The position numbers and the translations under genes are program-made. From assembly GCA_046563655.1 (NCBI GenBank), contig CM102288.1, positions 5,828,001-5,892,000 on the forward strand: a DNA stretch of 64,000 nucleotides. Direction: 5' to 3'. Positions 1 to 60,574 of the stretch are shown here, in pieces (the first letter of the stretch is position 1; each line of letters begins with the position of its first letter). Below the pieces are notes generated by a model, which saw only the letters and a program-made list of their open reading frames with translations, did no database searches and was not told the origin of the DNA. Source of the DNA: Yuukianura sp. NJ FZ-2021. Lineage: Eukaryota.

Positions 1-1
1 A

Positions 2-1420
2 ATGAAGCTCATCTTCGTCGTCTGCGCTCTGCGCATGTTCGTACTTGTCCAAGCAGTTACGCATCAACTCAACTCTGACGAAGATGAAGATACTTTGGTT
101 ATTCAGGGGATTAGGCACCCCCTGGAACAGCCTAAACAGCACCAATCCCCGGAAAAAGCGGAAGTGACTGGACAGGAAGGAATAAAGCAGGAAAGAGGAG
201 TTGAGCCTGAAATTGATGCCACAATCCCCAGAAACGTCAGATACTCTTCAGGCGGATATGGTGATGGTGGCTACAGTAACCACCAAGGTGGCTACGATAA
301 CCACCACACCGGGCATGGCTGGAGCCCACCTACTTATCAACATGGACACTCTGCTGGAGGTGTAGTGTGCACTGTTTGTTCCAACTACGAGGCTCAACAA
401 TGCTGTGCTTTCGGTTTTCGCCAATGTTGTAACGTTAGAGTCTACCACAACAATCATCATTCTGTCGGAGGAGCCGGATACACTCACATCAGTAAGAAAA
501 TTAACTAAAATGTTACTTTTTTTTACTTAACTTATTATATTATTAATATTTAATTATTATTATTACTATTATTTTATATTATATTATTCCAAGGTCCTCC
601 AAGTGTCTACAGCAGTACACATCTAGAGAAGCCTGGAAGTTGCAGAAGCCACTCCAACTTCGGTTACAGTAACCATGGCTACGTTAATCAAAACGCTGGT
701 TACTACGCGACTCGGAGGGAAGATAGAGTGAAACGAGATGCCCCACTTGTTGGGACCCACCAAACATACGGCCCACCTTACCACAGTATGTTAGGAAAAA
801 ATAAGGTAGCTAGTGTTACCACTAGACCATGGTGCCTCCTGTACCAAATGAAGGCTCTACAGCTTATGTTATCCCACACGACCCCGCCGCCTAAGCTTCG
901 GCCCCCGAAGCTAAAGCCTCAACCAACAAGACAGAAATACACACTGAGTTGACACTAACCTAGGGGAACAGGGAACCGAACTATGCGGCAAAGGGACAAA
1001 CAAACACCAATTAACCTAATCAACTCAGATATGCAATTCAGCTTGCAGGGAAGCCCTCGTCAGCAAAGGTGGAGTTCTCATTGAAGGTGGGAATGACCTC
1101 CGAGAAAAAATCCACCTCGCTGGTTCGCGAACGGTCGTCCACCACTCTGTTAGGAAAAAATAAGGTAGCTAGTGTTACCACTAGACCATGGTGCCTCCTG
1201 TACCAAATGAAGGCTCTACAGCTTATGTTATCCCACAAGTACCACTGGTGGCTACGGTTACTCCAGTGGACATAATGGTGGCTACGGAGTGCCTTCAGGT
1301 GGCTACGGATCTCCTTCTGGTGGCTACGGATCAAACCACTGTCGTAGAGACTACGATTGCCCGGGAAACGAAAAATGCTGCAGCGGACACTGTTCGAATC
1401 CTGTAGCTGTTATTGGATAA
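2..1420 (+). CDS. Secreted Gly/His/Tyr-rich protein with C-terminal WAP-like Cys motif (crustin/waprin-like); exon 2 interrupted by a mini-LTR element
   Basis: Signal peptide; exon 1 2-491 (GT at 492), exon 2 from 594. Removing 789-1237 and one AGTA copy restores ...PYHSTTGGYG...NHCRRDYDCPGNEKCCSGHCSNPVAVIG* (stop 1418-1420); EKPGSC upstream resembles a WAP start. Confidence 0.7.
789..1237 (-). mobile_element. Miniature non-autonomous LTR retroelement (TRIM-like), 449 bp
   Basis: Identical 90-bp direct repeats 789-878 and 1148-1237, each TG...CA; 4-bp TSD AGTA (785-788, 1238-1241); on the minus strand a PBS-like TGGTGGACGACCG 3 nt after the 5' LTR and purine-rich AGGCGGCGGGG just before the 3' LTR. 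Confidence 0.85.
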
Positions 1421-1993
1421 TAAAAAAACGTGCAAATCTTGAAACTGCCAATCAAAACATAATTTTATTTGATTTTCTGCAATGAATAACAACACAATAT
1501 GTAAAAACGACTTTGATCGTATTTCCCGCCAGTTCATACGTACTTTAAAAAATCGTTAATAGTGTTTATGCTTACAATTACTCTTAATTGCAAATTAATT
1601 TTTTTGTAAAATCGAAAACAAACTTGAGTTTAATAGTTCAGCAGTTCAGGAAAAGTATTATAGGTATCAACAAACCTTGAACTTAAACTTTGTTTAAAAA
1701 AAAACAATTTTTGGTCTGGCTATTGTGACAATTAAAATTTCCTCATGAGTTTTCCTGAATAAATTCCCGCAAGTGTTTTATCCTCTACGGGAAACCGAGT
1801 TTCCGGTATGAAAATACTGAAATTTAGTCAATTCTAAAAAAAAACGTAGAGGCTGAAAACCGCAAGAGCCTGCTCAAAAGTTATAAATATTCGAGAGCTT
1901 CGTGTTTGCACCTGAAACAATATTTAGAAAAACCTAATCATTTGAACACAAAACCAATAAGCTTTTTTCATTTTTTTTCAAAAACTTTTGAAA

Positions 1994-2767
1994 ATGGGTG
2001 CAGCAGCTTTTGGCTTGTTGATAGTATTGTTGAGTGGGGGCCAATTTTTATGTTTTGTGAAATGTCAAGGACCAAATATAGGTAATGGGTTGTACATCAT
2101 TACGAGTGCAGTAAAAGGTGCAGATAACGCCGTAAGGAAGATTTTCAAAAAAAAAATATATGAAAATTTTGAAAAAGTTAAGTTAGGTTAGGTTAGGTAA
2201 TAATTTCTCACATGTTTTAGTAGTGTTTCATTTCTTAAATTAGGAATATGCGCTACATGTCGAGGGACGTGCAACTTCCAAAAATTTGCATGACGTTATG
2301 TTGCAAACTTCTTCCCAGCCTACTGGCCAATTTTTCTGGGATCTCAGAAACAGTTAGTTCAACTTTTTCAAAAATAAAATAATTTTTTGAAATTTTTTTT
2401 TTTTTCAAAATTTTGAAAACTAGAGAACGCATGGCTTTCGACGTTGATTCCACCCACTAATCCTCAAAACATTGTGTCTCAAAATGAGCATGGAGTGCCG
2501 TATCAGTTTCAATTTCCACCAATTGGAGCTTACATGTTCAGAATCGAAAGATTTGTTGGAAACTCTATGGAATGTCTCAAAAGCAACGGGTATTTATTTT
2601 TTAAAATAAAATGGCACAATCAAATCCCTCCAAACTTTTTGAAAACAAAAACTTTTTATTTTAGAGTTGGCAAAAGTGTTTCGTTCGTTTCTTGTGGTCG
2701 CCCAGACAGAGATGACCAGTCATTGCTTTGGGAGTTTAAAGTGGTTGCCAGGTCAACACTCTTGTAA
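1994..2767 (+). CDS. Small secreted multi-exon protein, possibly beta-trefoil/ricin-B-like
   Basis: Signal peptide MGAAAFGLLIVLL; coding blocks near 1994-2131, 2244-2350, 2424-2589 and 2665-2767 separated by AT-rich GT-AG introns. Fold guess is weak. Confidence 0.5.
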
Positions 2768-3347
2768 ACACTCCATATCGATTTACAGTTGTGGCTTGTA
2801 CTTACTAAGGGAGTTACTTTCTCAATTGGAGACTTGAATTAATTCTGTTATTTCAAAAAAAAATTGTTTGACTCGAACTAAAATACAAAGCACATTGAAG
2901 TAATAAATATTTGCAACATTCAAATATGAAATAACCAAAAATGGCTCCAGGTCAGAGTCGACAATGCAATTGCCGACAAAGTCAATAACAGACAACGGTT
3001 AAAGCCAGCTTTCCATTTTTGTCATGTTTAGGTCATTTCGTTGTACGACATTTCTGCGATTCCGAGGATTAGGGAGTCTCTTCTTCGTCAACAAAGAGGG
3101 GGTTGGGAACGACACCAACGGAATGATTGCGCAATTCTCGTAGTGATTACGCTCCTCTCTTCAACAACAAACAACATAAACTGCCATATACAGCTGGAGT
3201 TTCACCATCGTTCGTAATTCGTAAGTCACACTTTCAATTATTGGACAGCCTTCCTAGTCACACGAGATGGTGACAGCTTGCCACTGACAAGTCTTCTGTT
3301 GGTTGAACTGAACTGCATTTATCTAAATCTGTTTTCAGCTGGTATCC

Positions 3348-4019
3348 ATGGAGACTCGTCAGGAGTGGTGCTCAATCATTGGAAGAGCGAAGGCCAAGGT
3401 CATTCGACTCGGGATACGCCATAAATCAGCCGCCTATGCAAGGTGGCTCAGAACAGCACCACCAGAAATCCGCCATCGTCTCCAACTTCCATCATCATAT
3501 TCGTCACAGGATCGCAGTAGTTCCGGTCATGCCACACAGTCCTCTATGGAATGTATTGAAATTTTGTCACCAACATCTACGCCTGTCTCGGATGACTTTG
3601 GAATCGGTACAGCCAGTCGTGACACTGACCGAGGTGTGGAACTTCTGCATGAGACATCCTCTTCTCAGGACAGCGATTCTCCACAAATCATCTTTGTTAG
3701 TGCAAGGAAGCGACCTGTTCCAGAAGGTTTCTGTCACTACTGTCCAGGGAATAAGCGAATACGACCAACTACGGACGAAGCTGGTTCACAAACGGACGAC
3801 TCATCTTTCCAAAGTCAACCGTCGCTGACTCTTCCGATTCTGCCACTGCCACCACGAAGACCGGACTGTCCATGCCTCTGTTTCTGTGGGGAACACGAGT
3901 TGGACAGTGATGGACCAACGTCTGCTAATCGTTTTTGTGCCTCAGTATTTCCCAACTTATCGCCAAGCAAAATGGCTCATCTCAACTCACTCCTGGCAGC
4001 AGCTGATCTCAACATGTGA
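3348..4019 (+). CDS. Hypothetical Ser-rich protein with Cys/His clusters
   Basis: 223-aa ATG ORF, more GC-rich than its flanks; CHYC and CPCLCFCGEH motifs; no recognised family. Confidence 0.35.
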   Translation: METRQEWCSIIGRAKAKVIRLGIRHKSAAYARWLRTAPPEIRHRLQLPSSYSSQDRSSSGHATQSSMECIEILSPTSTPVSDDFGIGTASRDTDRGVELLHETSSSQDSDSPQIIFVSARKRPVPEGFCHYCPGNKRIRPTTDEAGSQTDDSSFQSQPSLTLPILPLPPRRPDCPCLCFCGEHELDSDGPTSANRFCASVFPNLSPSKMAHLNSLLAAADLNM

Positions 4020-13352: not shown

Positions 13353-13862
13353 GCTAAAAACGTACAAAGTTATCAACAATTAAAATAATTGAGGTTAAAT
13401 TTGAATGAGTATTTCTACAGTACTGCACTCTCCGGAAATTTTCTTTCTTGCGTTTGCTGGAAATTTAGTCACTCTACCATATTTAATACAACCAGTAATT
13501 GAGTTCTAGATCAATTTGTTATATGAATGAATGTAATTTTAATACATTAATTCCTACATCATTAATTTCATTAAACTTATCGTTAATGTGCTGTACTCTG
13601 CATATAGAGCCAGAAAAAATAACACACCAAGAGTTAATTACTGCAACAATCAGTTCAAATGCTCAACACTTACTACATATTAAAGTTCTCAAAGTATTTT
13701 ATCAAATGTGTTTTTAATTAGTTGGCTCCATTAGCTTAATGGGTAGTTTAAATTTAGCGCGTAGCTAAAAATCAAGTGAGGTACTTAAGGAAGGAACAAG
13801 CTCCATTTTTTACCGCTTAAAAAGTTTGGCGCCGCAGTTTGGAAACATAGCTTACCGTCAAC

Positions 13863-15407
13863 ATGAACAACTTGAAGTCAGTTGCGATACTTTTTTTGGC
13901 ATCGCTAATGCTAGTTACCGCTAAAAAAGCTGAAAAAATTCCTAAAAATGGAGCTACGGCTGACGAAGACTACAACTTTTTTGAAAAGTGTTTGAAAAAA
14001 GGCGGTGTAAAATCTGGCAGTATTGTGAGCCGAAGTGATTCAGCGATTTACCAGGATCTGAACTACCAATGGCAAGCAAACGGGGAAAACCTAAGTCCTT
14101 TAGCCTATGTTGTGGTTGACAATGAACAAGACGTTGTCAGTACAGTTCAATGTGCTCGACAATCCAGAATCCGACTAGTGCCGAAAGGTGGCGGACATTC
14201 ACTCGAAAAATTTGGATTTGGAGATTCGCATTCCGTGATTGTAGATGTAAGAAATTTTGAATCGGTGGATATTGACAAAGAAGAGATGGTTGCTACCGTA
14301 GGTGCGGGAATGTTAACAGGCCCGTTGGCATGGAAACTGTTTCAACTTGGCGAAGTTTTCACACCGCTCTCCATTTGTCCAACGATTGGAATTTCTGGAA
14401 TGGCCACTGGCGGTGGGGAGGGCTTTTTTGTCAGAAAATTTGGTCTGACGCTGGACAATATCGTGGAGGTCAACATCGTTACTGCGCAAGGTCAGCTTCT
14501 GACGGTCAACCAAAACCAAAATGCTGACTTGTTCTGGGCACTACGCGGTGGAGTGGCATCAAATTTTGGAATTGTGACGAAATTCAAATTCAAAATTCAC
14601 CCCGCGCCAAAGACAATGTTCATGGGCATTTTGACGTTCGAACGGACGCTTTTACCAGAAGTGTTCAATGCATGGCAACACGTTGTCCAGGCAGCACCAA
14701 ATGACTTGTCCATGGAACTTGGCATAACGAAAAACGAAGTTTTTGTGCAATTCTTGGACTGGACTGGTGAAAGCACCAATTTTGAAAAAATCTTGAACGA
14801 TTTTCCAGAAAAAGGAAGTTCAACCAAAGAGTTTTTGAGTTACGAAGATTTTTTGTTTCGAAACGCAAAAGAATTTTCGGCAGAAATTTTATCTGAAGGA
14901 GTTAAACTCGAAACGGCCTCGGATTTGGCCAAATTAGACAGAAAATCTCCTGGGAAAATTTTTCAGCATCGGAAATCGTTTTACGTGAATAAAAAACTCG
15001 GCGAAGCAGAAATTCGCGAGTTTCAAAAACTGGTTGATGTTATGCCTACGGAAGTGATGATTTACTTTGAAGGTTACGGTGGAGCAGTTGCAGACATTCC
15101 GAAAAATGCGACAGCATTTGTCCACAGAAATGGAACACTTTATAACATTATTGCTAACTACCGTGATCAAGACATTCAAAATTCAACTATCCATGATCAA
15201 ATTTCTGAAAATTTGAAGAAATTTTTTGACACTGGGAAGGAAATTTTTCATCACAAGGAATCTTATCAAAATTATGTGGATTTAGACCTGGAAGAACCAC
15301 TCGAACGCTACTTTGGAACAAATCTTCCACGTCTTGTTCAAATCAAACGGAAGTACGACCCAGACAACTTCTTCTTCAATCCACAATCAATTCCAACAAA
15401 AATTTAA
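13863..15407 (+). CDS. Secreted berberine-bridge-enzyme-like FAD-linked oxidoreductase (FAD_binding_4 + BBE), intronless
   Basis: Signal peptide; KGGGHS flavinylation His; CPTIGISG Cys; DLFWALRGG..NFGIVT; C-terminal YQNYVD...YFGTNLPRLVQIKRKYDPDNFFFNPQSIP. Confidence 0.92.
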   Translation: MNNLKSVAILFLASLMLVTAKKAEKIPKNGATADEDYNFFEKCLKKGGVKSGSIVSRSDSAIYQDLNYQWQANGENLSPLAYVVVDNEQDVVSTVQCARQSRIRLVPKGGGHSLEKFGFGDSHSVIVDVRNFESVDIDKEEMVATVGAGMLTGPLAWKLFQLGEVFTPLSICPTIGISGMATGGGEGFFVRKFGLTLDNIVEVNIVTAQGQLLTVNQNQNADLFWALRGGVASNFGIVTKFKFKIHPAPKTMFMGILTFERTLLPEVFNAWQHVVQAAPNDLSMELGITKNEVFVQFLDWTGESTNFEKILNDFPEKGSSTKEFLSYEDFLFRNAKEFSAEILSEGVKLETASDLAKLDRKSPGKIFQHRKSFYVNKKLGEAEIREFQKLVDVMPTEVMIYFEGYGGAVADIPKNATAFVHRNGTLYNIIANYRDQDIQNSTIHDQISENLKKFFDTGKEIFHHKESYQNYVDLDLEEPLERYFGTNLPRLVQIKRKYDPDNFFFNPQSIPTKI

Positions 15408-26069: not shown

Positions 26070-26752
26070 TTAAAAGGGGTCACGAGGTCACATAAGCTCA
26101 AAGTGAAAATAAGTTTCGACTTTCCAGAAATTTTGAAATTAAAAACATTTCCAGGATTTCCAATAAAAAAAAAGATCCAGAATTTATACGACCAAAACTT
26201 TTTTTTTTTTAGAAACAAAACCATTTTCTAGAAAAAAGCATAAAAGCAACTTATTGAAACTTTTTTTTCTAAAAATTTATCCAAATGTACGAAAAAGTTT
26301 TGAGTTTTTTTAAGAAAACTGGCTGCGTGTGGTAGAAAATATGTTGAACTCTTGGAAAAAATGAAAGAGTAAAAAAAAACGTTTTTCAAGTCCCTTCAAT
26401 TTTTTTTTCTGAACTTTTTATTTTTGAAATTGAAGGCTTAATTTGGCACGCAAGGGGGAAGGGCCCTTTGAAAAAATTTTTGACTTCTGTCCGTGATGAT
26501 TTTGAAGAGTGGCCACGCGACTGAAAGAATCTGTTGAACATTTCCAAGAACTTTTAGAGCGCAGAGGGCCCTTCAAGGGGTCACTTGAGCAATTGACCCA
26601 GAAATTAAAAATTCAAACCGGTTGCTTCTGCTACCAAAACACTTACACACGCAAATGCTTCCAAAATTCTCAAAACCCGAATTTTGAAAATTCTGGAGAA
26701 CAAGAAATTAAACAGTGCTGTTATGCCTTCCAATTCCATGTTTTGTTCTTAG

Positions 26753-26821
26753 AACCTGGTAGCTCAATGGTTAGAGCTCTTCCAGAATTAAAGAGGGATG
26801 GGTTCGAGTCCTCCTAGGTTC
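26753..26821 (+). pseudogene. tRNA-like pseudogene or tRNA-derived SINE head
   Basis: Acceptor stem AACCTGG/CTAGGTT, D-stem GCTC/GAGC, A box TAGCTCAATGG, B box GGTTCGAGTCC; anticodon and T arms degenerate. Confidence 0.6.
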
Positions 26822-26968
26822 TTTATTTTTTCTCTACTGTGATTTTTTGTTTCTCAAGACATGTGAGCCCCAAACCTCACAGAGTCCATAATTAATCTAT
26901 TTGAAATTATTCTAAACACGAGGTTAGAGTTTTTTAAAACATTTTTTTACGTTTTAACTTTTTGCATG

Positions 26969-29341: not shown

Positions 29342-30808
29342 TTACAGTTCAGTTTTCCTCCTCTTCTGCGCAGGGGATTCCTCAGTACTGGAGGAATACT
29401 TGGAAGCTATTTGAATTGCCGCATTTCTGCCGCTAATTAAACTCATTTCAATAGCACTAGCTGCCCACTCGATTCCATTTAAGTAGTAGATACTTGGAAG
29501 TACATGAAACGACGGCAGTGGAGGTGGGGTTTGAGAGTATTCTGGATAGGCCCACCATTCTGTCACTTCCACTTGGTGAATCTCGTCAAAAATCTCGGCC
29601 ATTTCAGAATCAGTAAGTACTTGCGGACTAAAAACTTTGTAGACTGGAACTGTTTCGCTCCTGGTAAGAACTACTGGATGAACACGACTGATGGAAGTGA
29701 AGAAGTTAGGAGTGCAGGCAAGGATGTCCAGCCACTTGCGATACTTTGGTTTGATCTCATTGGCCGCAACTAGGGTGGACACAGTTCGATGGTACGACAT
29801 GTCACGGAGTGGAGCCAAAGTGGCGTCGATGGTTGGCTGTTGATCAAGAAAATTGACAAACTGGATATCATTTTGACGAGATAGCGGCAAGGCAATGATG
29901 ATCTTGTCATAAGTTCCTGGAAGAAGAGTTTTTCCGATTTTGTCCGTTGATAAGCGAAAAGCTGAACCGGAAGGAACTGCGACAATTGATTCAATCTTGG
30001 TGTTGAGATGGATACGGGCATTGGAGTTGTTGAGCATGGCGGTTGCCAGGAGCTTGTTGCCATCCTGGACACTCCAAAGGTCATTGGCAGCACCGGCGAC
30101 AGAGACATGACCGACGAGTGAGTGGATCCTTGCGGGCTGTCCATAATTGACATAGGTTATGGCTTGGACCAGCTCAGTGATAAACTCTTCTTTGAATCCA
30201 TGCTCTCGTAAAAAAGAGTCAAACGGTGTGTTAGTGAGGTTGAGCAGTTTAGGATCCATCGCAGTCAGCATCGCTTCGACCGAATCGTAAGCGATTCCTT
30301 TATCATGCAGCTCATAAATATTTTCAAATCCGGAGATAAAGTCTTCCGTCAATGCTTGGAGTCTGTTGAGATCAAATCCATAGCGGGACAGTATTTTAAA
30401 AATTGTGACCAGTGTCCAACTGCTGGTGCTGAACACAATTTCGGAATCTTTGAGAATGGAAGTAATGCTGGAAGCAGTTGAATCTTTTCTGACAGTCAGC
30501 CCGAGTCGTTTGACTAAGTCCACTGCTAGCTTATTGCGTGGATGGATAATGGAGCCACCAGATTCATATTCGTTGCCCAGCATGTTGACGGTGGCCATTC
30601 GTCCTCCGATGATCCCCTTGGCTTCAAACACGTCAATTTCGACATTAAAATTGAGCAACTGAGACAAGTGGTAGGCTGCCGATGAACCGCCAGCACCAGA
30701 TCCAATGACGGCAATCTTCGGCAGAGGAATTGCAGCACGGGTCAACTGAAGAAAAATACTTGGCAGCATCAGCATCATCCAGGAAATCAATCTCCTTGGC
30801 GCAACCAT
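29342..30808 (-). CDS. PCYOX1: Prenylcysteine oxidase 1-like, intronless
   Basis: Signal peptide, KIAVIGSGAGGSSAAY FAD motif, YESGGSIIHPRN, VNYGQ, YYLNGIEWAASAIEMS, C-terminal KTEL. Confidence 0.92.
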   Translation of the reverse strand: MVAPRRLISWMMLMLPSIFLQLTRAAIPLPKIAVIGSGAGGSSAAYHLSQLLNFNVEIDVFEAKGIIGGRMATVNMLGNEYESGGSIIHPRNKLAVDLVKRLGLTVRKDSTASSITSILKDSEIVFSTSSWTLVTIFKILSRYGFDLNRLQALTEDFISGFENIYELHDKGIAYDSVEAMLTAMDPKLLNLTNTPFDSFLREHGFKEEFITELVQAITYVNYGQPARIHSLVGHVSVAGAANDLWSVQDGNKLLATAMLNNSNARIHLNTKIESIVAVPSGSAFRLSTDKIGKTLLPGTYDKIIIALPLSRQNDIQFVNFLDQQPTIDATLAPLRDMSYHRTVSTLVAANEIKPKYRKWLDILACTPNFFTSISRVHPVVLTRSETVPVYKVFSPQVLTDSEMAEIFDEIHQVEVTEWWAYPEYSQTPPPLPSFHVLPSIYYLNGIEWAASAIEMSLISGRNAAIQIASKYSSSTEESPAQKRRKTEL

Positions 30809-31580
30809 TGCTGCGATAGTCCAACTTGCTTAATTTCTTATCCTCTGGCCGATTGATTTATAACGTTGAAACGAAAATGTCGTCAATGTGTCGTCACGAG
30901 TTAGACACGGTGGATCTGTGGGCGGAGTAAGAAAAAAAAAATGAAATGTCAAAATAACTGGGTGATTGATGAGCTACTTTTGTTGATTTGTAAGTGCTTA
31001 CCAAATAGTTTTACAGCTGTTTGTTCTGTGCTGTCGGTGACACACTTGACCTTTGACCTTCCGTCACCGAAATCAATCGATGTCACCGACAAATCAATCA
31101 CGTTCCAAATTATCGGGCCGGCTAATTTAGTTTGTGGTGTAGGTTTATGCACGACCGTCTTCTGTCGTCACACACGATATTATTGACCATTTTCCAGAAT
31201 TTTCAGAACTTTCAGAACGCACTTATTTAGTATTTAGAATGACGTCAGTTACATCCAAAGTTTTCAGAGAATTAGTGTCAATGCTTCAATGTTCAACACT
31301 TAACCTAGAATTCTGCGGAATAGTCAGCCCTATACCGCCTTCTAAATTCGCACTCTTCAAATTGTAACGTAGGTAATTAATTAACTGTTATCGTTGACAA
31401 CTTGTATTTGGTTTGCCCTTGGTAGAGAGAGAATAGTCATGCTGACTCAACTATAAAGGAAAGGTAAGATCGGTATTTAATTATTAATCTTGGGGGCTGA
31501 ATTACTGTAATCTTGTGATAAACAGAAAACAGAAAATGTGTACTTATACTAGCTTTGATTTTGTGATCTAGAGAGACAGC

Positions 31581-39737: not shown

Positions 39738-42700
39738 TTAACCCAAAATCTGAATTCGGTTGAGCTTTTGACAAGAATCGTCCAAGATCTTCATTGCAAA
39801 TTCTTTCGCTGCGTCACGTACAGCCTCTCTCGCAGTCTTTTCATGCAAGTCTTCAGCGACTGGCTCCACTCTGGACCTTGCACTTGCGCATTTAGCAAAC
39901 CGAGTTCCGTTCATTCCAACTGATTCAGTGTCTTCAGAAATCACCACAAACAGCTTCTCCATCAACACCCAAATGGCAGTACGCACTTGTGTATCTTCAT
40001 CCTCCAGGCCAATCTCAAGCCACTGCCATATCTAAAAACAAACAAACTTTGAATTTGAAATCTTTCACAAAAAAATTTTTTTTTCAGAAAACTTTTTTAA
40101 AAACTTACATCGACCAGAATTTGTTCCAAGATGGTCGTTCCCAGTTGGGGGATGAGAGCAGCTACGACCTGGTATGCAGACATTTTGAGCTGGGGATTCG
40201 TGTACTCTCGACTGACGTTGAAGCAGACGTTGAGCACTGGAATCAAGTACACGGCAGCGATTGGACCAAGACTCCCAAGCGCCTTGCACAGAACTTCTCC
40301 GATTTTCAGTCGGAAGTTGACCTCCTGCGGGGTCAAGAGGTCAACTTCTCCGCCTTTCCGTTTGGGATGAGCTGCAAACAGAGTCAGCAGCTCCACCAAA
40401 GTTGTATCGTGGTGCTCCACAGTGAGAACGACGAGGGCGTTGATGCAATGATTGTAGATGTACTCGTCATCGCTCTCCAAAGTCACCAGAAGTCGCTGTT
40501 TCACCACATCAAAACTAGTGCCGATGTCTGAAACAAAAAAAAAACTGAATTTTAACCACAAAGTTGAAAATTTTGAGTTTTGATGAAATTTAGAAAGTTT
40601 TAAAAAGTGGTTGAAAAAGTAGAGTAAGTAAAGTAGAAGGACAATGTGTGCTACCATACCCACAACATACCAACAACATACCAACAACATACCAACAACA
40701 TACCCACAACATCACCACAACATACCAACAACATACCCACAACATACCAACAACATACCAACAACATACCCACAACATACCAACAACATACCCACAACAT
40801 ACCAACAACATATTAAGGCAATCTTTCACTCAAAGCAAAATTTCGTTTCAGTGAAAGAAACTGAAATAAATGAAAAAAACTGAAAAACTTAAATAAACTT
40901 AAATAAACTACAGCTGTTTTCTTTAGTTTAGCTTCTTTCACTTGGAGGTTTTCTTCGTTTAGGGTTTTTTTTTTCAGTTAATTTCAGTTTTTTTCACTTT
41001 TCACTGAAAAGTGAAATATTTAACTTCTAGTCGTTGGGTAGGGTCGGGAGACCCCATGAGTACTAGGGAGGTTTTCATGTATGGCTTATTCCCGGCATGA
41101 AGACTTCTGGGATCAACTCCCACTCGGTTTGTTATTTTTTTTAAATGTTTTTCTTTATATTTGTTTTCAAAAACTTACTTGGGTGATGTTCCAGAATCAG
41201 TTTTTTGAGTTGGATGAGTCCCATGCCGACTGTTCCAGGAATGGCCGAACTCAGGCTAAAAATAGCTTCTTCCACGGTGCCCTTGGAACCGTGGTGTCCA
41301 GTATCACTTGATTTTTCACGCCGTGCTGCCCCACCTTCGCTCCTACCGCGCGTTTCAATGAGAGCGATGAGCTGCTCCACTCTGTTTGAAATTCCAGTTT
41401 GATCCAGAATTGGGTGCTTCAACTCCAGCATCTTCTGCAAACTGGGTTTCATTTTGTTCAGATTCTCCCAGCCAATCAACGCAGTTTCCAGCACTTGGTC
41501 TGGAGGGGGCCCTGGAGGGTCCTTCCTGTGTGGATCCTTGTCCATTTCGTACGTTGTATCAATGAGCACTCCAACCAAATCCAGTGTCTGGACGAGTGTG
41601 GAAGTGAAAGGGAAGTCCACGCTTGGCTCATTTTGAGTCGTCCAATGAGCGATGTCGGTAAGGAGTTTGTCCAGAATCAGCTGGAGGGAGGCCAAAGAAG
41701 TCTGCTCCAGTTCGGACACGAAGGAGTCGAAAACGGGTTCGTCTGAACCGAACTCCGAAACGATCAACGAACCCACAACTTTCTGAAATAAAATCAAATA
41801 TTAGTGCTGGCACACCAAAAACTTTCAAAGTTTAAAAAACAGTTCAAAACCCATCGTAATAAACGTTCTATAAACGTTTAAAAAAAGGTTAAAAAATTTT
41901 GTAAAACTTTTAGAACGTTCAAAAAACTTTGTAAAGCGCCCAAAAAAAACTTTTTTTTTAAAGTTAGATTTCTTTTTAAAGTACCTGGACTGTAGCGTAG
42001 TTTGACCAATCAAATTGTTCCTCGTCCATCTTGTATCGAATTTCTTGCTTTGAAAACTTCGAATCAGGGAGCAACTGACCGTCAAAACGTAAAAATTCAG
42101 CAAAAAGCAAATTCTTGGTCGTTTCATCCAAGTGATGGAACAGAAGTTTGGAAATGTGCCTGGAAGTAGACTGCAAGTGACCCCGAATCTTGTCTTTCGT
42201 CAAGACCAATCGCTGAAAACTGTCCAATCGTGATTCGTCATCGCTGCATTCCTCTTGTCCTGGACAGCATTCCGTTCCAGTGCTTTGAACGAGTTCTGCT
42301 GCCAGCGGACTCACTTTTCCGCGATGTCCAATGATCAAACTGACCACGAATTGTGCCAGTTTCTTCGGTTTCGGCTTCTGCTCGACGTTTTCAGGCTCAA
42401 CTTTGGCGTAAGTCTGGATAACTTGAACAATGAAGGCACCTAGTTTGGATTTGACTTCGGTAAGGAACTGATGATCTCCGACTTCAACGATTGGCTGGTC
42501 CAAGTGACAAGAGACACACTCGAAGATGGAAGTGACACAAAACCAATGGGAGCGATATGCCAAGAATTTGGCGGGTTTTGACAAATCTGGAAGTTCGAGG
42601 AGCAGAGAGTACAACTTGAGTAGATCCAGAACTTGACTTAGTTTGGCTTTCTTTGGAACTGGACACTGGTAGAATTCAGCGATTGGCGCGAAGAGCTGGA

Positions 42701-44062
42701 GGTAACTATCTAGTGCGTGATTGGTTGAGAGCTGACTATCTTTTCTGTGATTGGTCGAGATCTGCTTATCTTGTCTGTAATTGGTTGGAGCTGAACCGGA
42801 TTGAACTGGATTGGATAATACTTTGTGTTGGTATCTGGTCACTCCGAGGTAGATTGCTAAAGCGACACGTTTCACCGGATCAGCTGACTTGTCATGCAAG
42901 ATTTCCATTGTTTCGTCCAATATAATGTGGCAGGGATCGAGTTCATGTTCTGCTGAGGATGATGCTGCCAGTATATTGTGTGCTGCTGATGTGCTGGCCA
43001 GTATATTGAGTGTAGTATTGAGAAACAACTCACAGTCGCCGTGCCAAGTAGATTCGGTGACAGTTGAAAGTAGAAGTCGAGTGACATTTCCACGAAGAGT
43101 GAGAATATCACGGAAACCTCGGACGGAGCAATCCTGAAGTGGCTTGCAATCTGGATTGTACAAGTGGAATAGAAGTGCTCGGAAGCCTTGATCCACCGGA
43201 AGTGTGAATAGGAGATCACGAATCCAGAATTCCCTGAGAGTGGAATGGACAGAAGTGGAATGATTTTCAGTGGGTGGATCTGGATTGGAGTACAGAAAGT
43301 GGAGTAGACATGGAAGGAGATTCTGATTTCTGAGGACAAATCTTGAGAGATGACTGAGGAAACTGGGGATGAGTGACATGATTTCAGTGAATCGCTTCGT
43401 GGTCTGTGTAGAAGTCAGCTGATTCGTTTCAGTTTCGTATAATTTGGCTGTCTTGGAGTCCAGGACTGGAGCTGGACTTCCAGGATTCCTTATTTCGTAG
43501 GGCATCAAGCACCGAGCGGCATAGCCCATGACGAAATCCAACGACGACTGCACCACACCCTGCTGCTGCAAACTGACATTCTGTGAAAATGTTAAAATTT
43601 TTGAAAAATTAAGATTGAAACACAAATACTTAAGGGTTATTAGGAGTCTACCATATTTAGCATATAGTAATTTTTATCATTTTCTTACTTCAATTGATGT
43701 CGTAGATTGTCCGATTTTTTGTAAGACTTCGAGAGTGGACTTAACACGGTTCCAGAGAGGACTTCTCTTTCCAGGAGGAGCCACCGATTGTTGGCTGTTT
43801 TGTGCGACATTGACACTGTTGTTAGCATTGACAGTTCCTAATTTTTGAGATTTCTTTCGCTCTGAGTCATTTCTAGTAACGTTCTCTGCAAACAATTGAA
43901 ATCTAATTTCAGATTTATGACACCTAGAACCTGATTAATTGATGAGATGCAAAATGGAAACTTACCGTCAACTATGGGCTTCTCTGCTTCGATTTGTTCA
44001 AGTTGTTCACACCATTTCCGGATCTTCGCTCGTTCTTTCTTCACTTGGCCTGGATTGACCAT
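39738..44062 (-). CDS. TANGO6: Transport and Golgi organization protein 6 homolog (Rtp1 family), multi-exon
   Basis: Large helical protein; RTP1_C-like VEEAIFSLSSAIPGTVGMGLIQLKKLI, LESDDEYIYNHCINAL, RLKIGEVL. Start codon position is uncertain. Confidence 0.75.
40655..40811. repeat. Intronic 11-bp minisatellite (CATACCAACAA/CATACCCACAA), ~14 units
   Basis: Directly visible tandem array; source of several spurious ORFs. Confidence 0.95.
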
Positions 44063-44772: not shown

Positions 44773-47080
44773 ATGTGCAGTTTCCTTGTTTTCGCAAACT
44801 TGATTTTGACTTTTCTTGCCTCTGCAGCATCAGAGCAAACTTTGCACATTCGAAATCTGTATAAATTGATAGATCAGTTTCCTTCCACACAGTGACAACT
44901 TGGTAATTGCTGAAAACGAGCAGTTCCAAATTACTTCCAGTTTTGCTGTTCCCATTAAATTGTACTACATGTGGAACAGACATGGAAATTGTGAAGGTTT
45001 ATTCTCTATCTCCGGCAAGGGAATTATCTGGAACAACTGGCAATTTGGTGGCAAACTAAACTCCTTGGAAATTTTTCTCATATTTCCACACAGTGTATAT
45101 GAAAACCAAAAATACAAAGGGCCATTGAAATCATGCTTTCAATTGCACTACGGAAGTGAAAAATATACAACTTTTGAAGAATACCCGGCTAATATGGCAA
45201 GAAAATTTGGCATATCCACGCATATTTTCACTGGTAATGACTTTCCATACGTAGCTAATATTACACAAGTACTCACTAGTCATGAAAGGGGTATGTTATT
45301 TTTTCACAACCTCACTACATACTATAAAGACTACACAAAGAATAATAAAAACACGGAATTTGTGATCTCCAATATATCAGTTTACCACGACCTTAAATGG
45401 TACCCAATGAACACATCAGGTGCACTGGAGTCGAAACAGTTTCGCAAAGTCATACCAAATTTAGAGCGAGTAGGAAAGCATGACTTAGGCGTACACAGTA
45501 TGACAAAGTTAGTACACGAAAACAAAATTTTAAATCCTTTCAAAAGCCTTGAAGCCCTAAAACATTTGACGTTGCAACAATATACATTTTTACTTCTGTA
45601 CGACAAACTAGAAATTTATGTTTTGCGCGAACAAGGTGAACAACAGCTTGCCATGGAAACGGAATACTTGGTGCGCCATTACATAGACACTTATGGCACA
45701 GTGCAAGAGGGTTACCACCAGCTGCTTTTTGTTCCTACTGCAATGGACAACATAAGTTTCTTAACCTGTGACGGAACATCGGAAATGCTAAACTTCGAAA
45801 TTTATACAATACCGTACGATACATACTTTTGGGTCACAACTTTTGCAACGGGAGTTTTACTCACACTTTTGGCTACTTGGGCAATCCATGTCCGATCACC
45901 AGCAACTTTCCAGTTTAAAAAATTGGGCCCTATTTGGATAGACGTTTTCTTCGTCTACTTCGCAAGTCTTTGTGAAATTTGTACTAAATTTCGGCAAAGA
46001 TTTGCCCGGGATCGTAGAATTTTTGTCCTCAGTTTGTGGTTGTTATTGACTGTTATTCTGACAAATGCTTACAAGGGCGTTGTTGTGTCGTACTTGATAA
46101 GTCAGAAACCCATTACACAAACTTACTACAAACTGGATCAGCTGGAAGGTTTTGTGATACTAACAGACAAGAGCTTTGTTGAACACTGGGACGTATGGGG
46201 AGAAAATAGGTTCATGATACAGGAAATGATGCAAATTTTTACTTGCGAGTGCAAAATTTGGATATATGGCAACCTGACAACAGCTGATTCCCTTCCAGCT
46301 GAAGTAACTTCGAATACTGCATTTATGCAAATAGCAAATTTTGTGAAATCAGATACTTTCAAATGCCTTGATGTCATTATTCCTCTCCAGCAGAAAGGAA
46401 TAACCTGCTTTGATTGGTTTGCTTACCACAACCAGACGGAAGGACAAACTAGAAACAAGAATCCGGCTGATGAATACAACGCATGGGCAAGATCCAAACT
46501 CCCTAAAACGGCTATATTAGGTAGTCCCCTAGAAAGTAACAGAATGTACCAATTGCACAGAATAAGAGATATGCTGAGGAGACTTTCGGAAATTCTCTCT
46601 TCTTGTTCTAAAACAGCCTTGGTATTGCAGGAGTCAAGCTTGAATTTATATTTGGCAGACTACGAAAACAGAATACAAAGTAATGGTGTGGAATCTGTAC
46701 ATTTCCGAAAAGGAATGGATCCAATAGGAACAGTTTCAGTAGGATATCACTTAGACCATGAACAAAAATACAAAAAAATGCAACTACTTATGTCCTCTGG
46801 AATTTACAATTTGTGGGAAAAGTGGGTTCCCTTGACAAGACCGACTGCGAGAGATGAAATTTTACGCGAACATGAAAAAACGAAATGGCTTCTAAGTCGA
46901 CCACAAAAGTTGAGCTTGACAGGAAACATTATTACATGTTTCTACATGCTTCTGTGTTGCTTGGGTTTGTGCATTTTTGTATTCATGTATGAAGTAAAGC
47001 TGGTAGCTTATACAAATATAGCACAAGTAACAGGATTTCATCGCCTACTGGCGTGTAATTTCATAATAGTTACCAAATGA
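44773..47080 (+). pseudogene. Divergent ionotropic receptor (IR), intronless, frameshifted near the 5' end
   Basis: ATG 44773 with signal peptide aligns to the paralog start; a TTCC duplication at 44879-44886 gives TGA at 44893; the remaining 726 codons are open (PYDTYFW, ILTNAYKGVVVSYL, LMSSGIYNLW). Confidence 0.75.
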
Positions 47081-47864
47081 AAAACTAATGCGACTGCTAT
47101 GTCATGTATTCGAGAAATGAAAATTAGGGTTGTATAAAACATCAACGGAAGATCTGAATGTATTAGCTTGTATGTTATCTACTGAGTAATTTTAAACAAG
47201 TTTCGTAAATGAACTAACGATAATACTTTCATTATACCACAGAAAGTTAGTGTACAATTTAACTAATTTATGAATCCACAAAGCTATTAGATATCGGGTG
47301 TTCCAAAAGTTGGCTTCATTTTTCTGTACACTAAACTCTTAAAGCTCCAAAAACTCAATGGTGGGAGATGGAAGATGAGATGGAGAAGTTACACATGGAG
47401 AAATAAGATGAAATTTCCCTAAATTTGCGCTTTGTTACAAAAAAAAAAAAAATTAAACAACATAAAAACCTTCTCATGATAGACTTATTCAACCACTTAA
47501 ATTTTTTATTAACTATTAGTATGAGTGTTCCATTTCGTGCTAAAACCTTCTTTGCTTAATTCATCAACTAAAAATTAATAATTTGTAAATTGACACTTCT
47601 TATGGAACAAGTATTAAAATACTGTTTTTTTAATCACTTCGTGTTTCAAAAATGGCAGTGGGTTTGACGCAAAATATTATTAACCATTCCATGCGATGTA
47701 AACTTTACCAAAAATTTTTTAACCAACCTCCCTTCCAAGGTTTTCAAGCCAACTTTAGTTTTATTTTGTTAATGTGACGCTGCGAGTAAATCGCTGAAAA
47801 TAACAAGAATTAAACCAAAGTTTGTTAAGATCCGATCACAGTTCAAATCTGCATTTTATAAACC

Positions 47865-50180
47865 ATGTGCGTGTTTCGGCTTTTTGCAAACCTGATTTTG
47901 ACTTTACTTGTCTCATCAGCAGCAGAGCAATCTTTCTACATCAGGAATCTACAAGAATTGATAAATCAGTTTCCACATAGTGACAACTTGGTAATTGCCG
48001 AAAACGACCAGTTTGAAATTACCGCAAGTTTTGCTGTTCCCATTAAATTGTACTACATGCGACACAAAGATGGAAATTGCGAAGGTTTATTCTCCAACGA
48101 GGGAATTATCAACAACTGGCAATTTGGTGGAAAACTAAATACTTTGGAAATTTTTCTCATATTTCCAAAAAGTGTATATGGAAATCAGACATACAAAGGG
48201 CCATTCCAGACATGCTTTCAATTGCACTACGGATATGAAATTTATACCACTGCTGAAGAACACAATGGTGTTGAAATTCAACCGAGACTCTTCGGTGTAT
48301 CCGTGCATATTTTTGATCGTAATGACTCCCGTTACACAGTAAATATTCCAGAAACACTCACTTCTAGTGTAGAATCGTATATGATATTTTTCCACAACCT
48401 CACAACATACTATCCAGATAAGAAAAATATTAAAAACAAGGAATTTGTGATCTCTAACATTTCATTGTCCCACAATAGCAATTGGCACCCAATCAACACA
48501 TCAGCAGCAGTGGAGTCAAAACAGTTAAAAAAAAATATACCAAAGTTTGAGACAATTAGACGACTCAACCATGGGTTAAAATGGACCAAGTTAGTTCCGG
48601 AGAATAAACTTTTAAATCCTTTCAAAAGCCACGAACAATTAAAAGACTTTACTCTACAGCAATATATTTTTTTACTTTTGTACGACAAGCTGGAAATTTA
48701 TGTTTTTCTGGACAATACTGAATCACTCGCTTGGCAGATAAAGTTCGTGACATATGATGATCACTCTTACTTCTACGGTCCAGTACCAAGGATCAAACGC
48801 CCCTTTTTTGTTCCTACGGAAACGAAAAACATAAGTTTCTTGACATGTGACGGAGTATCTGAGTTGCTCAGTTTTGAAATTTATACAAAACCGTACGATA
48901 CTTACTTTTGGGGTACAACTTTTGCAACGGGAGTTTCACTTGCCCTTTTGGCTACTTGGGCAATCCATGTCCGATCGCCTACAACTTTCCAGTTTAAAAA
49001 ATTGAGCCGTATATGGTTCGACGTTTTCTTCATCTATTTCGGAAGTTTTTGTGAAACTTTTACTAAATTTCGGCAAAGATTTGCCCGGGATCGTAGAATT
49101 TTTGTTCTCAGTTTGTGGTTTTTATTGACTGTTATTCTGACCAATGCATACAAAGGAGTTGTTGTGTCGTACTTGACTACTGAGAAACCCATTACGCAAA
49201 CCTATACTAAACTTGATCAGCTGGAAGGTTTTGTCATACTAATAGACGAGCGCATTGTTGAGTGGTGGGATACTAGAGATCATTTTATGACAAAAAAACT
49301 GATGTTAACTTTTACCTGTCAGTGCCAATTTTGGACAATGGGGAAGCTGACTACGCTTGATTCACTTCCAGCTGAAGTAACTGGAAATGCTGCGTTTATG
49401 CGAATAGCAAATTTCGTTAACTCAGATACTTTCAAATGCCTTGATCTGATTGGTTCTCAATTATTACAACAAAGTAACATGAGCTGCTATGATTGGTTTG
49501 CATACAACAATCACACTGAAGTACTAACAGAAAACTTGTCTCCCTTTGATCAATACAATGTATGGATTAGATCTAAATTCCCTAAAACCTATATTTTATA
49601 TAGTCTCCAAAATAACAACAGAATTTACAAGTTACACAAAATCAAGGATGTACTAGCGAGACTTTCAGAAATACTCGATTCTTGTTCCAAAACAGCCTTG
49701 GTATTGCATGAGTCAGAGTTGAATTTATATTTGGCAGAATACGAAAACAGAAAACGACGTTCCGGTGTGGAAACTGTGCATTTTCGGAAAGGAACGGATT
49801 CAATAGGCACTATTCCCATAGGATATCACTTTAACCTTGAGCATAGATACAAAAGGATGCAACTACTCATGTCATCTGGAATTTATCGCTTGTGGGAAAA
49901 GTGGGTTCCACTAACTAGACCTACTGAAAGAGACGAAATTTTGAGAGAGCATGAAAAAACGAAATGTATAAAAAGGCGACCTCAAAAACTGAGCTTGGCA
50001 GGAAACATTATTACATGTTTCTACTTACTTCTTTGTTGCTTGGGTTTGTGCACTTTTGTTTTCATTTATGAACTAAAACTGGTAGTTTATACAAGCATAA
50101 CTGAAGGAAAAAGTGTAATATCATGGATTTACCGCACCCTGAAACTCATGAGAACAAAAACTTTTGCGATTATGTTTTAG
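47865..50180 (+). CDS. Divergent ionotropic receptor (IR), intronless
   Basis: 771 aa; signal peptide, FLTC/PYD..W pre-M1, M3-like LTNAYKGVVVSYLT, S2 end LMSSGIYRLW, KLSL before M4. Confidence 0.82.
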   Translation: MCVFRLFANLILTLLVSSAAEQSFYIRNLQELINQFPHSDNLVIAENDQFEITASFAVPIKLYYMRHKDGNCEGLFSNEGIINNWQFGGKLNTLEIFLIFPKSVYGNQTYKGPFQTCFQLHYGYEIYTTAEEHNGVEIQPRLFGVSVHIFDRNDSRYTVNIPETLTSSVESYMIFFHNLTTYYPDKKNIKNKEFVISNISLSHNSNWHPINTSAAVESKQLKKNIPKFETIRRLNHGLKWTKLVPENKLLNPFKSHEQLKDFTLQQYIFLLLYDKLEIYVFLDNTESLAWQIKFVTYDDHSYFYGPVPRIKRPFFVPTETKNISFLTCDGVSELLSFEIYTKPYDTYFWGTTFATGVSLALLATWAIHVRSPTTFQFKKLSRIWFDVFFIYFGSFCETFTKFRQRFARDRRIFVLSLWFLLTVILTNAYKGVVVSYLTTEKPITQTYTKLDQLEGFVILIDERIVEWWDTRDHFMTKKLMLTFTCQCQFWTMGKLTTLDSLPAEVTGNAAFMRIANFVNSDTFKCLDLIGSQLLQQSNMSCYDWFAYNNHTEVLTENLSPFDQYNVWIRSKFPKTYILYSLQNNNRIYKLHKIKDVLARLSEILDSCSKTALVLHESELNLYLAEYENRKRRSGVETVHFRKGTDSIGTIPIGYHFNLEHRYKRMQLLMSSGIYRLWEKWVPLTRPTERDEILREHEKTKCIKRRPQKLSLAGNIITCFYLLLCCLGLCTFVFIYELKLVVYTSITEGKSVISWIYRTLKLMRTKTFAIMF

Positions 50181-57714: not shown

Positions 57715-57798
57715 GGCTTAGTGGTCTAATGGTATGATACTCGCTTTGGGTGTATGAGAATATGCGAGTGGTTCGGGGTTCGATTCCCCGCTGAGCCC
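57715..57798 (+). tRNA. tRNA-Pro(TGG) with 12-nt intron
   Basis: Acceptor GGCTTAG/CTGAGCC, anticodon stem CTCGC/GCGAG, TGG 57747-57749, intron 57751-57762 at the canonical 37/38 site, T-arm CGGGG TTCGATT CCCCG, T-run downstream; spliced length 72 nt. Confidence 0.9.
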
Positions 57799-58366: not shown

Positions 58367-60574
58367 TTATTGTATAGATTCGATGAGCAACACGTTGTCA
58401 TGATACTTGCGGATAAGATTCATGGCATCTTCCATGTCACGAGCTATGTCCATAGGCTGAAAAAGTTTAATAAACATTGCAATAAAGTTCCCAAATAAAG
58501 TTTCGCTACTGTAAACACAAGGTTGCTATAGCAACCAATCTACAACAGGTTGTGCAATAACTCAGGTTTTCCAGAACTTTTACTTCAAACAAATTTCTGC
58601 ACCAATCCCATTTACATTACATGCAAAAAAATTACCATAGAAAGGCAGATTTCCTACTTTCAAACAAAGTTTAAAACTTCGAGTTACTGGACAACCTGGT
58701 TTAGAAAAAGTTTTTTTTTTATATACATTGAGTAAACAACACTTTTTCTTAACAAAATACCTGCTCATCGAGTGTCACAAAAGTGAGTTGTCGGAGTCGT
58801 TTTAGCCGTCCAGTGGCGGAAGCGTACAAAGCAGCGGAAATTGCGACTTTGTCGTCGAATGTCAAATAAATTTCAAGATCCTTCAGTTCTACAACAAACA
58901 AACAACTGATATGTCAACCGGTGTAAGCAAGTAGCAAAAGATGGCTCTGCAATCGTAAACTGAGCTGTTTCCGATATAATTCCCGTCGACGGCCTGGCGG
59001 CATACAGACACACAGACAGACAAGGTCGATGCATAAAGCAGCTTTCGTTACTTAATGATTAATATGCTAAATTAAAACGCATTGCTAAAACTAGACTAAA
59101 CTGTGAGTCAAATGTGTTAAATATTTTTTTTACTTACTATTAATTTCTCCAATTGTATTTTCATCAATCCCAAACATTTTTCCCTCGAAATCTTTGATAC
59201 GCTGAAGGACATACGGTAGCCGTAGCCCTCTGGTAACACTTCTATCATTGCTATAGTACGGTTCGCCAGTTAACACTTCCCAGGATGATTCCCTTAGTTT
59301 TAAACTTTCCAAGTGAGGCAAATTCTTTACCAAGGAGTAAAATGCATAAAAATCTGGATGGAGCGATGATGACAAACGGCTAGGTTTCCGTAAACACACG
59401 CTCAGTTTCTTCAAATTTGGGAACAAGAAATGTGCATTGTTTGAAGTTATGTTTGTGACAGTAGTCAATCGGAGTTGGTGCACAGTGTTCAATGGGTTGG
59501 TGAATAAATGAGGAATGGTGTCGTAGTGTCTATCGTGTTGAAAGAATTTGAGTTTGGACAAACGTAAAGTTTGAATCCATTTCCAGATTGAACTTTTGAG
59601 TTCGAAGTTAAGTTTAGTCTGAAGTGAAATGGCAAGAGCAACAATTCTGGGTTGCGGAGTTAATTTTATGAGTTGATTAAAAACAGTTTCCAAAGTGGGT
59701 GTGACACTTCCCAGCCGCAGTTTGACTTTTGTTGATGTAGAGGGCAGGAGACTTAACAAGGTTGGTAACTTTTGTAGTTCGGTTAGAGGCATAAATTCTT
59801 CATGAGAGTGAGAATACCATCTACCAAAACAGGTATAGTAAAGTAGCGAAAGTACTTTGAGTTGAGGCGAGTGTTTGATGATGTTTTGAAACATGGCTGG
59901 CTCTCCAGCATAATTTCCATAGTCTTCAAGTGAGAATTTGACCTTGAACTTTTTCAAATTTCGAAACGCTTGAGCACAACTTGGTTCATTTGGAGCTGGA
60001 AATTCTACTCCTTCGAAAACCACTAGGTACAAAGATGTTAAATTTGAAGTGCTAAAAAGCAGAGTTTGAATTGATCGTCCATAGTCTGTTTTCCATGAGG
60101 GACGTTTGGTTTTCCAGCTTGGAAATTCCAAATCCCATGTGTTACGAGCGTTCGGCAGAAATCTGATTTCACTAACTTGCGTAGTTTTCAAAAAATGTTG
60201 AATTGCATTTGGAGTAATGTCGTGGTCCAATTCAAAAGCAAACTTGGAAAATGGAACTGCTGATCCTGGAGTAGTGCGCATGAGCCACGAGAAGTATTTC
60301 ATGTCATTGTTGGTTCGGAAATGAATTGGGTTGTGATATTTCCGTAGCACAAGGAACATTGATGGGTCGTCCCTCCAACTACGGCAAACCAGGCGACAAT
60401 TCAGAATGTCGCTACTGGGAAGCAGCGAAAGGATTTGACCAAAAACCTAAGCAAAAAGTAACATATTTGACGAAAATATTTTCAAGTCAAAAATCAATAA
60501 CTTACTTCTGTTGGCAGAGTATCAAAAACATCACTTTGGTGATTTGCGTCTCCTGGAGCCCAAATTTCCTCCAT
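58367..60574 (-). CDS. F-box/LRR-like protein, copy 1 (4 exons)
   Basis: Exons 60574-60506, 60446-59138, 58888-58761, 58456-58367 are phase-consistent; F-box LPTEVFGQILSLLPSSDILNCRLVCRSW; LxxLxL repeats. Confidence 0.85.
58546..58698. mobile_element. Degenerate MITE in F-box copy 1 intron 3
   Basis: CAGGTTGTGCAATAACTC versus GAGTTACTGGACAACCTG inverted repeat; no TSD; a P-MITE-like end CAAGGTTGCTATAGCAAC lies at 58518. Confidence 0.45.
58900..59058 (-). mobile_element. DINE-1/HINE-like element in F-box copy 1 intron 2
   Basis: Same terminal structure as 54306-54575 (AAGTAACGAAAGCTGCTT plus GTCT repeats; AAGTAGCAAAA at 58929); absent from the paralog intron. Confidence 0.6.

Follow-up and report, generated by a model that had tools for sequence, protein, structure and literature searches.

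TRIMs are defined as LTR elements shorter than 1000 bp with terminal direct repeats of usually 100-250 bp, a non-coding interior that has a primer-binding site (PBS) at its start and a PPT at its end, and target-site duplications (TSDs) of 4-6 bp (available parts of PMC6934838 and PMC4717578). An arthropod example is PbTRIM of Pogonomyrmex barbatus, which the available part of PMC3532108 describes as a non-coding miniature LTR element of 480-781 bp. Its LTRs measure 152-184 bp and are near-identical, the PBS follows directly on the 5' LTR (and is reported to match tRNA-Leu) and the PPT precedes the 3' LTR. PbTRIM makes TSDs of 4 bp at AT-rich targets, most commonly ATAT, and inserts in or near genes; its partner was not found according to the same text. 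Helenus elements, which belong to the TRIMp3 group, are small TRIMs of 311-1263 bp from several animal phyla including Arthropoda, and animal families of this type have 4-bp TSDs as well (PMC10886601). They are defined by a tRNA-derived LTR sequence with A and B boxes, and their PBS regions, which resemble those of Gypsy elements, are shared with Gypsy elements only (Kojima 2024, PMC10886601). Related in general plan are the plant TRIMs (including SMART), with 5-bp TSDs as the typical case, and the retrozymes, which are non-autonomous LTR-type elements with a non-coding interior and hammerhead ribozymes in their repeats (available parts of PMC4717578 and PMC6934838, and of PMC4918200, respectively).

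Here we describe a comparable locus in a stretch of 64 kb (64,000 nucleotides), which is called the window below and to which all coordinates refer. The window has a G+C content of 38% and contains eukaryotic genes. Positions 789-1237 very probably represent one copy of a low- to moderate-copy, non-autonomous TRIM-like family, lying on the minus strand and recently inserted into the second coding exon of a gene. The features of the locus, with the evidence for each, are the following:

2..1420, plus strand: interrupted host gene (frames with and without the element; WAP match at the C-terminus)
785..788, no strand: left copy of the target-site duplication, AGTA (window sequence; empty-site joint with 4 letters fitting both sides)
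789..878, minus strand: 3' LTR in element sense, 90 bp, TG..CA (90/90 identical to 1148-1237)
879..1147, minus strand: non-coding interior, 269 bp (no Pfam family for 8 ORFs; no Rfam family)
882..892, minus strand: PPT-like G-rich tract, 9 purines in 11 nt (3 nt upstream of the 3' LTR; function as PPT putative)
894..912, minus strand: perfect hairpin with 8-bp stem and 3-nt loop (adjoins the PPT-like tract; shuffles and minimum-energy fold)
1132..1144, minus strand: PBS-like tract of 13 nt with TGG start (3 nt downstream of the 5' LTR; window sequence)
1148..1237, minus strand: 5' LTR in element sense, 90 bp, TG..CA (repeat search and script on the window)
1238..1241, no strand: right copy of the target-site duplication, AGTA (window sequence and read-contig joint)

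A script run on the window sequence finds 789-878 and 1148-1237 identical at all 90 positions, both copies starting with TG and ending with CA. The boundaries of the repeats are exact because the bordering bases differ on both sides (A788 against C1147, C879 against A1238). In a repeat search the same pair emerges as the longest repeat family of the window (95 nt, 98%, spacing 359), and two identical 90-mers at a distance of 359 bp cannot be chance. Together with the 269-bp interior the repeats add up to an element of 449 bp, which is bordered by AGTA at 785-788 and again at 1238-1241. Script and repeat search thus bear out the basic structure given in a preliminary description of this DNA, namely two identical 90-bp TG..CA repeats, an AGTA TSD and an interior of 269 bp. 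No other copy lies within the 64-kb window: at word size 7, blastn with the whole element, its LTR and its interior as separate queries detects no further match of more than 19 nt.

The sense strand of the element is the minus strand, because only there do a TGG tract and a G-rich tract occupy matching places; on the plus strand no TGG follows the left repeat, and the right repeat is not preceded by a purine run. The same description had noted a PBS-like tract, a PPT-like tract and a hairpin with an 8-bp stem, all of which are present. The PBS-like tract lies on the minus strand (plus-strand 1132-1144 being its complement), and its place and TGG start are those that a primer-binding site pairing with a tRNA 3' end should have. 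Contigs from public reads, which are discussed below, hold one extra G behind 1136, inside this tract, and the variants share its first 8 nt only. Neither of the two tRNA genes within the 64-kb window (Pro-UGG and a weak Phe-like call) matches the tract, and the corresponding tRNA-end string occurs in 3 publications that, judged by title, contain unrelated primer lists. Self-priming as in Tf1 was considered and rejected: no segment elsewhere in the element is complementary to the PBS region over more than 6 nt. At 882-892, also on the minus strand, the PPT-like tract lies where a PPT should, 3 nt from the LTR, and has 9 purines among its 11 nt; it is interrupted by two C and does not form a clean purine run. 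The hairpin occupies 894-912 with its loop at 902-904. When LTR plus interior were subjected to 3000 mononucleotide shuffles, 58 of the shuffled sequences had a hairpin of equal quality, which makes it mildly unusual. It also forms in the minimum-energy fold of the whole element, for which the fold z-score is -3.07.

Stop-to-stop ORFs of at least 25 aa overlap 785-1241 in 14 cases. Eight of these lie mainly in the element and were searched against Pfam, the other 6 (mainly in the flanks) being left out. No family is found at E<=0.01 for the 8 element ORFs, in agreement with the earlier statement that the interior has no recognisable gag or pol. Rfam yields nothing at E<=10 on 700-1330 or on 1100-1240, and thus no tRNA, 5S rRNA or hammerhead module. 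ARAGORN calls no tRNA in the element at default or -ps settings. A tRNA-like interior was considered on the basis of a relaxed ARAGORN match at sense 195-277, and was rejected as noise since 90 of 300 dinucleotide shuffles give such a match too. As to an autonomous partner, we find no reverse transcriptase, integrase or Gag family in the 35 scanned ORFs out of the 44 window ORFs of at least 120 aa.

With its size of 449 bp, TG..CA repeats, non-coding interior, TSD with an exact empty site and dispersed multi-copy occurrence (see below), the element agrees in these respects with the definition of a TRIM, and its PBS-like and PPT-like tracts are suitably placed. Its 90-bp repeats are slightly below the usually quoted range of 100-250 bp. 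We class it as a TRIM-like non-autonomous LTR retroelement with unusually short LTRs. The likeness to PbTRIM, as far as covered by the available part of PMC3532108, includes the arthropod host, the non-coding miniature LTR structure, the 4-bp TSD, the placement of PBS-like and PPT-like tracts next to the LTRs, the near-identical LTRs, the insertion in or near genes and a partner that was not found. Differences concern the dimensions (449 bp with LTRs of 90 bp, against 480-781 bp and 152-184 bp) and the target (AGTA in a coding exon, whereas PbTRIM has AT-rich targets). All of these likenesses and differences are a comparison by description only.

Plant TRIMs and SMART elements resemble the window element in being shorter than 1000 bp, with terminal direct repeats and with PBS and PPT (in the window element, PBS-like and PPT-like tracts) bounding a non-coding interior (available parts of PMC4717578 and PMC6934838). 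Enrichment in genes, polymorphic recent insertions and an exact empty site are further likenesses, whereas the typically 5-bp TSDs and the repeats of 100-250 bp differ, and a sequence relationship is not expected (available part of PMC4717578). Small size, presence in arthropods and 4-bp TSDs are shared with Helenus. Where Helenus has its defining tRNA-derived LTR sequence with A and B boxes (PMC10886601), however, the window element shows no more than an A-box-like 11-mer, which is at chance level; a B box and a tRNA call are both lacking. Membership of Helenus was rejected on these grounds (A-box-like motif only, no B box, no Rfam tRNA, no ARAGORN call at default settings). The retrozymes, similar in their non-autonomous LTR-type plan and non-coding interior, likewise do not include the window element, as Rfam finds no hammerhead match in it at E<=10 (available part of PMC4918200). 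Cassandra and Ajax, TRIMp3 elements with a 5S-derived LTR, were rejected as relatives as well given that there is no Rfam 5S match at E<=10.

Judged from the reading frames, the element appears to sit in the second coding exon of a gene for a secreted Gly/Tyr-rich protein. The host frame opens with an ATG at 2 and a hydrophobic, signal-peptide-like N-terminus that is followed by Gly/Tyr/His-rich repeats. Exon 1 extends to 494, a 99-nt GT..AG intron covers 495-593, and exon 2 runs from 594 to a stop codon at 1418-1420. When the frame is read with the element, it enters the insertion at 789, continues for 54 foreign residues and meets a premature stop at 950-952. When the element is taken out, as in the empty form present among the read contigs (see below), the frame stays in phase through further GGY repeats up to a Cys-rich end. 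The last 59 aa of the protein score 31.1 bits with the WAP four-disulfide core, for which the cutoff is 20.8. For the filled allele we thus predict a shortened product that lacks the WAP-like tail.

We also considered that the element might be spliced out as an intron. By eye, a GTATGT is formed by the TSD and the start of the LTR, and an AG is available at 1238-1239. Removal of 786-1239 (454 nt), or removal up to the CAG at 1219-1221 (436 nt), shifts the frame in both cases, and consequently no in-frame splice rescue is seen. A 24-nt repeat unit of the GGY type recurs at 3439-3462 in the neighbouring ORF 3327-4019 (plus strand), which has no Pfam match and may be a paralogue of the interrupted gene.

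Public reads provide an independent view of the locus. Five DNA runs are listed, and no RNA run; four of the five come from one sample labelled organism A and one is labelled organism B. Contigs of four runs (X1 to X4, X4 being that of organism B) were aligned to window positions 1-2400 at 88% likeness. In all four runs one contig carries the empty site: its joint runs from 784 to 1238 and skips 453 bp, that is, the 449 bp of the element plus one AGTA. For X1, X2 and X3 this joint has word depths of 71.5, 62.1 and 28.9, which come from contigs and do not measure copy number; the shorter side extends over 51-74 letters, and 4 letters are compatible with either side. For X4 the corresponding values are a depth of 3.78, 39 letters and 3 letters that fit both sides. 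The empty site thus occurs in the organism-A sample and in organism B, and the empty allele for which the preliminary description had proposed a search in reads is present as a precise joint.

The same runs contain the element itself. An interior contig in X1 (record 3) covers 880-1217 at a word depth, again not a copy number, of 239.9 against 175.9 for the flank contig 1-299, and one in X2 (record 11) covers 893-1176 at a depth of 167.7 against 56.3 for the flank. Both differ from the window at the same places: T>C at 982, T>C at 1044 and the extra G behind 1136. X4 contains a collinear interior contig for 891-1150, in which 9 differences and 4 gaps are counted. Its 56-nt LTR contig, over 792-847, shows 0 differences. 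Organism B therefore carries the family at other loci while its copy of the window locus is empty. Loose ends that pass from the repeat ends to unrelated sequence lie at 879 in both X1 and X2, and in X4 at 1238 as well as at 1151. Given the exact empty site, the variant interiors and the repeat ends joined to unrelated DNA, the insertion is real, is polymorphic for presence or absence and belongs to a dispersed multi-copy family older than the insertion. Other genomic copies, on which the preliminary description had made its reading depend, are accordingly found in the form of variant interior contigs and of repeat ends with other flanks. Overall, its central proposal of a recent non-autonomous miniature LTR retroelement, one of a family with further copies, is supported by the empty site and the variant copies.

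Among the matches listed there is no contig that bridges the filled junctions, and exact-pattern scans of metagenome contigs with two LTR stretches give 0 loci. At 694, 700 and 703, X1 holds the window letters as well as the variant letters of the empty-site contig (X2, record 10), which fits two haplotypes in the sample but does not prove them. Further variation is seen downstream of the gene, where 47 bp within 1474-1522 are replaced by 103 letters and where read contigs skip 238 and 369 bp of AT-rich intergenic DNA (1427-1666 and 1986-2356). SNPs are dense in the read contigs, up to about 9% in some. These length variants and SNPs suggest that the sampled haplotypes are quite divergent.

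The locus had initially been called very young. Identical LTRs of only 90 bp bound the age weakly, however, and LTR identity alone does not carry this claim. A better sign is the presence/absence polymorphism, which is real evidence of a young insertion. Three interior positions separate the window copy from the common read variant; one of them concerns the length of a G-run and could also be an assembly error.

Could the window copy be a one-off, derived by internal deletion from a full-length LTR retrotransposon without any miniature family that propagates? No second complete copy is readable base by base, which would fit such an origin. Moreover, the word depth in X2 is 1007 for the LTR bins (801-880) and 168-197 for the interior bins (961-1120); these depths are no copy numbers, but because the LTR exceeds the interior, the LTRs could be solo LTRs or come for the most part from longer elements. 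Against this stand the collinear interior contigs of X1 and X2 that differ from the window copy, and the collinear interior of X4, a differently labelled organism with an empty site. Such variant interiors in three runs indicate that the miniature form exists at other loci and predates the insertion, and we consider a one-off deletion very improbable. It is extremely improbable that no retroelement is involved at all and that the locus arose instead by misassembly, by local duplication or by the DNA-mediated insertion of a sequence with terminal direct repeats. What could be said in favour is that no contig across the filled junctions is among the matches listed, and that of the three interior differences between window copy and read contigs one is a G-run length, which is typical of long-read assembly errors. 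Yet assembly software would not create an insertion that has a TSD on both sides and, once removed, exactly restores an open reading frame, and both the empty form and the element (with other flanks) are present in independent read sets. TG..CA ends, a PBS-like tract starting with TGG and a G-rich PPT-like tract, each at the expected place, fit the plan of an LTR element, and we know of no class of DNA transposons with terminal direct repeats of 90 bp.

A different question is how the element is transcribed. It might be a pol III-linked TRIM (TRIMp3, Helenus-like) with a tRNA-derived promoter module in the LTR and with R delimited by the LTR's T6 run acting as terminator. In sense orientation the LTR indeed contains an A-box-like 11-mer at sense 50-60, and behind it come a 6-bp hairpin and a T6 run (sense 78-83). 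Signals of pol II are lacking, as no TATA or poly(A) hexamer (AATAAA, ATTAAA or TATAAA) is found on either strand of LTR plus interior, and the TSDs of animal Helenus also measure 4 bp (PMC10886601). The A-box-like motif, however, is found in 249 of 3000 shuffles, and a B box is seen on neither strand. Rfam gives no tRNA, 5S or other family at E<=10, and ARAGORN is empty at default and -ps settings apart from the relaxed match mentioned above, which lies in the interior and is no better than shuffles (90 of 300). In addition, a full-length transcript would have to read through two T6 runs, since the interior contains a second one (sense 127-132). A pol III-linked element is therefore very unlikely. 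The same holds for the more specific proposal of a new, minimal TRIMp3 lineage in a basal hexapod-like arthropod that has an A-box module only plus a T-run terminator and is transposing now, which we regard as a far-fetched option; current transposition of such a lineage is suggested in as much as the exon-disrupting insertion is polymorphic.

Taking 789-1237 as a TRIM-like insertion, the following course of events may be envisaged. An RNA would run from the 5' LTR (1148-1237) to the 3' LTR (789-878), with promoter and termination signals that presumably reside within the 90-bp LTR. It would be packaged in trans by Gag and Pol proteins supplied by an autonomous LTR element at another genomic location. 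The 3' end of a host tRNA, for which the preliminary description suggested an Ala-like one, could pair with the TGG tract at 1132-1144 and prime the minus strand, after which the G-rich tract at 882-892 would prime the plus strand. The integrase of the partner would then join the TG..CA ends with a 4-bp stagger, and insertion into the second coding exon would have duplicated the 4-bp target AGTA. As for the type of partner, the 4-bp TSD is only consistent with a Gypsy element (PMC10886601).

The locus shows recent mobility of a miniature LTR family in a soil arthropod lineage; the family has been mobile recently and may still be. In the literature, no TRIM family in springtails is found among the titles of the best 15 of 36 matches for TRIM, Collembola and LTR, a search in which 'trim' may also mean read trimming. 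Through the insertion, the gene for the secreted Gly/Tyr-rich protein with its WAP tail has a natural truncating allele, and this could serve as a presence/absence marker. Insertion and family can also be used for tracing the autonomous partner and the priming tRNA. The element is ordinary in kind and leaves the knowledge of how TRIMs work unchanged.

The remainder of the window holds several other features. A prenylcysteine-lyase ORF at 29342-30829 has springtails as its best named relatives (46% and 42% identity), followed by mites (about 40%), while closer relatives (72% and 64%) come from metagenome and read-assembly sources. Going by this single protein, the host would be a soil arthropod, probably belonging to the springtails or close to them. 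The tRNA-Pro(UGG) gene at 57715-57798 (plus strand, Rfam 51.5 bits) is 84 nt long, and its extra length suggests an intron after the anticodon, which to our knowledge is unusual for an animal tRNA-Pro. The weak tRNA-Phe(GAA)-like call at 26751-26823 (plus strand) reaches 30.5 bits in Rfam against a gathering score of 29 and has a T-run behind it; either a tRNA gene in decay or a repeat derived from a tRNA may be present here. Two adjoining ORFs on the minus strand, 59130-60446 and 62499-63824 (438 and 441 aa), each have an N-terminal F-box and look like a tandem pair. Long open frames at 41976-43673 (minus strand), 44873-47080 and 47862-50180 (both plus strand) encode 565, 735 and 772 aa and have no Pfam match at E<=0.001. 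A single open frame of 518 aa at 13851-15407 (plus strand) combines FAD_binding_4 with BBE (berberine-bridge-like) domains. Proteins of this family occur more often in fungi, plants and bacteria than they do in animals, and a horizontal origin may be worth checking. Closer to the element, at 2183-2197, we find three interstitial tandem copies of TTAGG, the arthropod telomere repeat unit.
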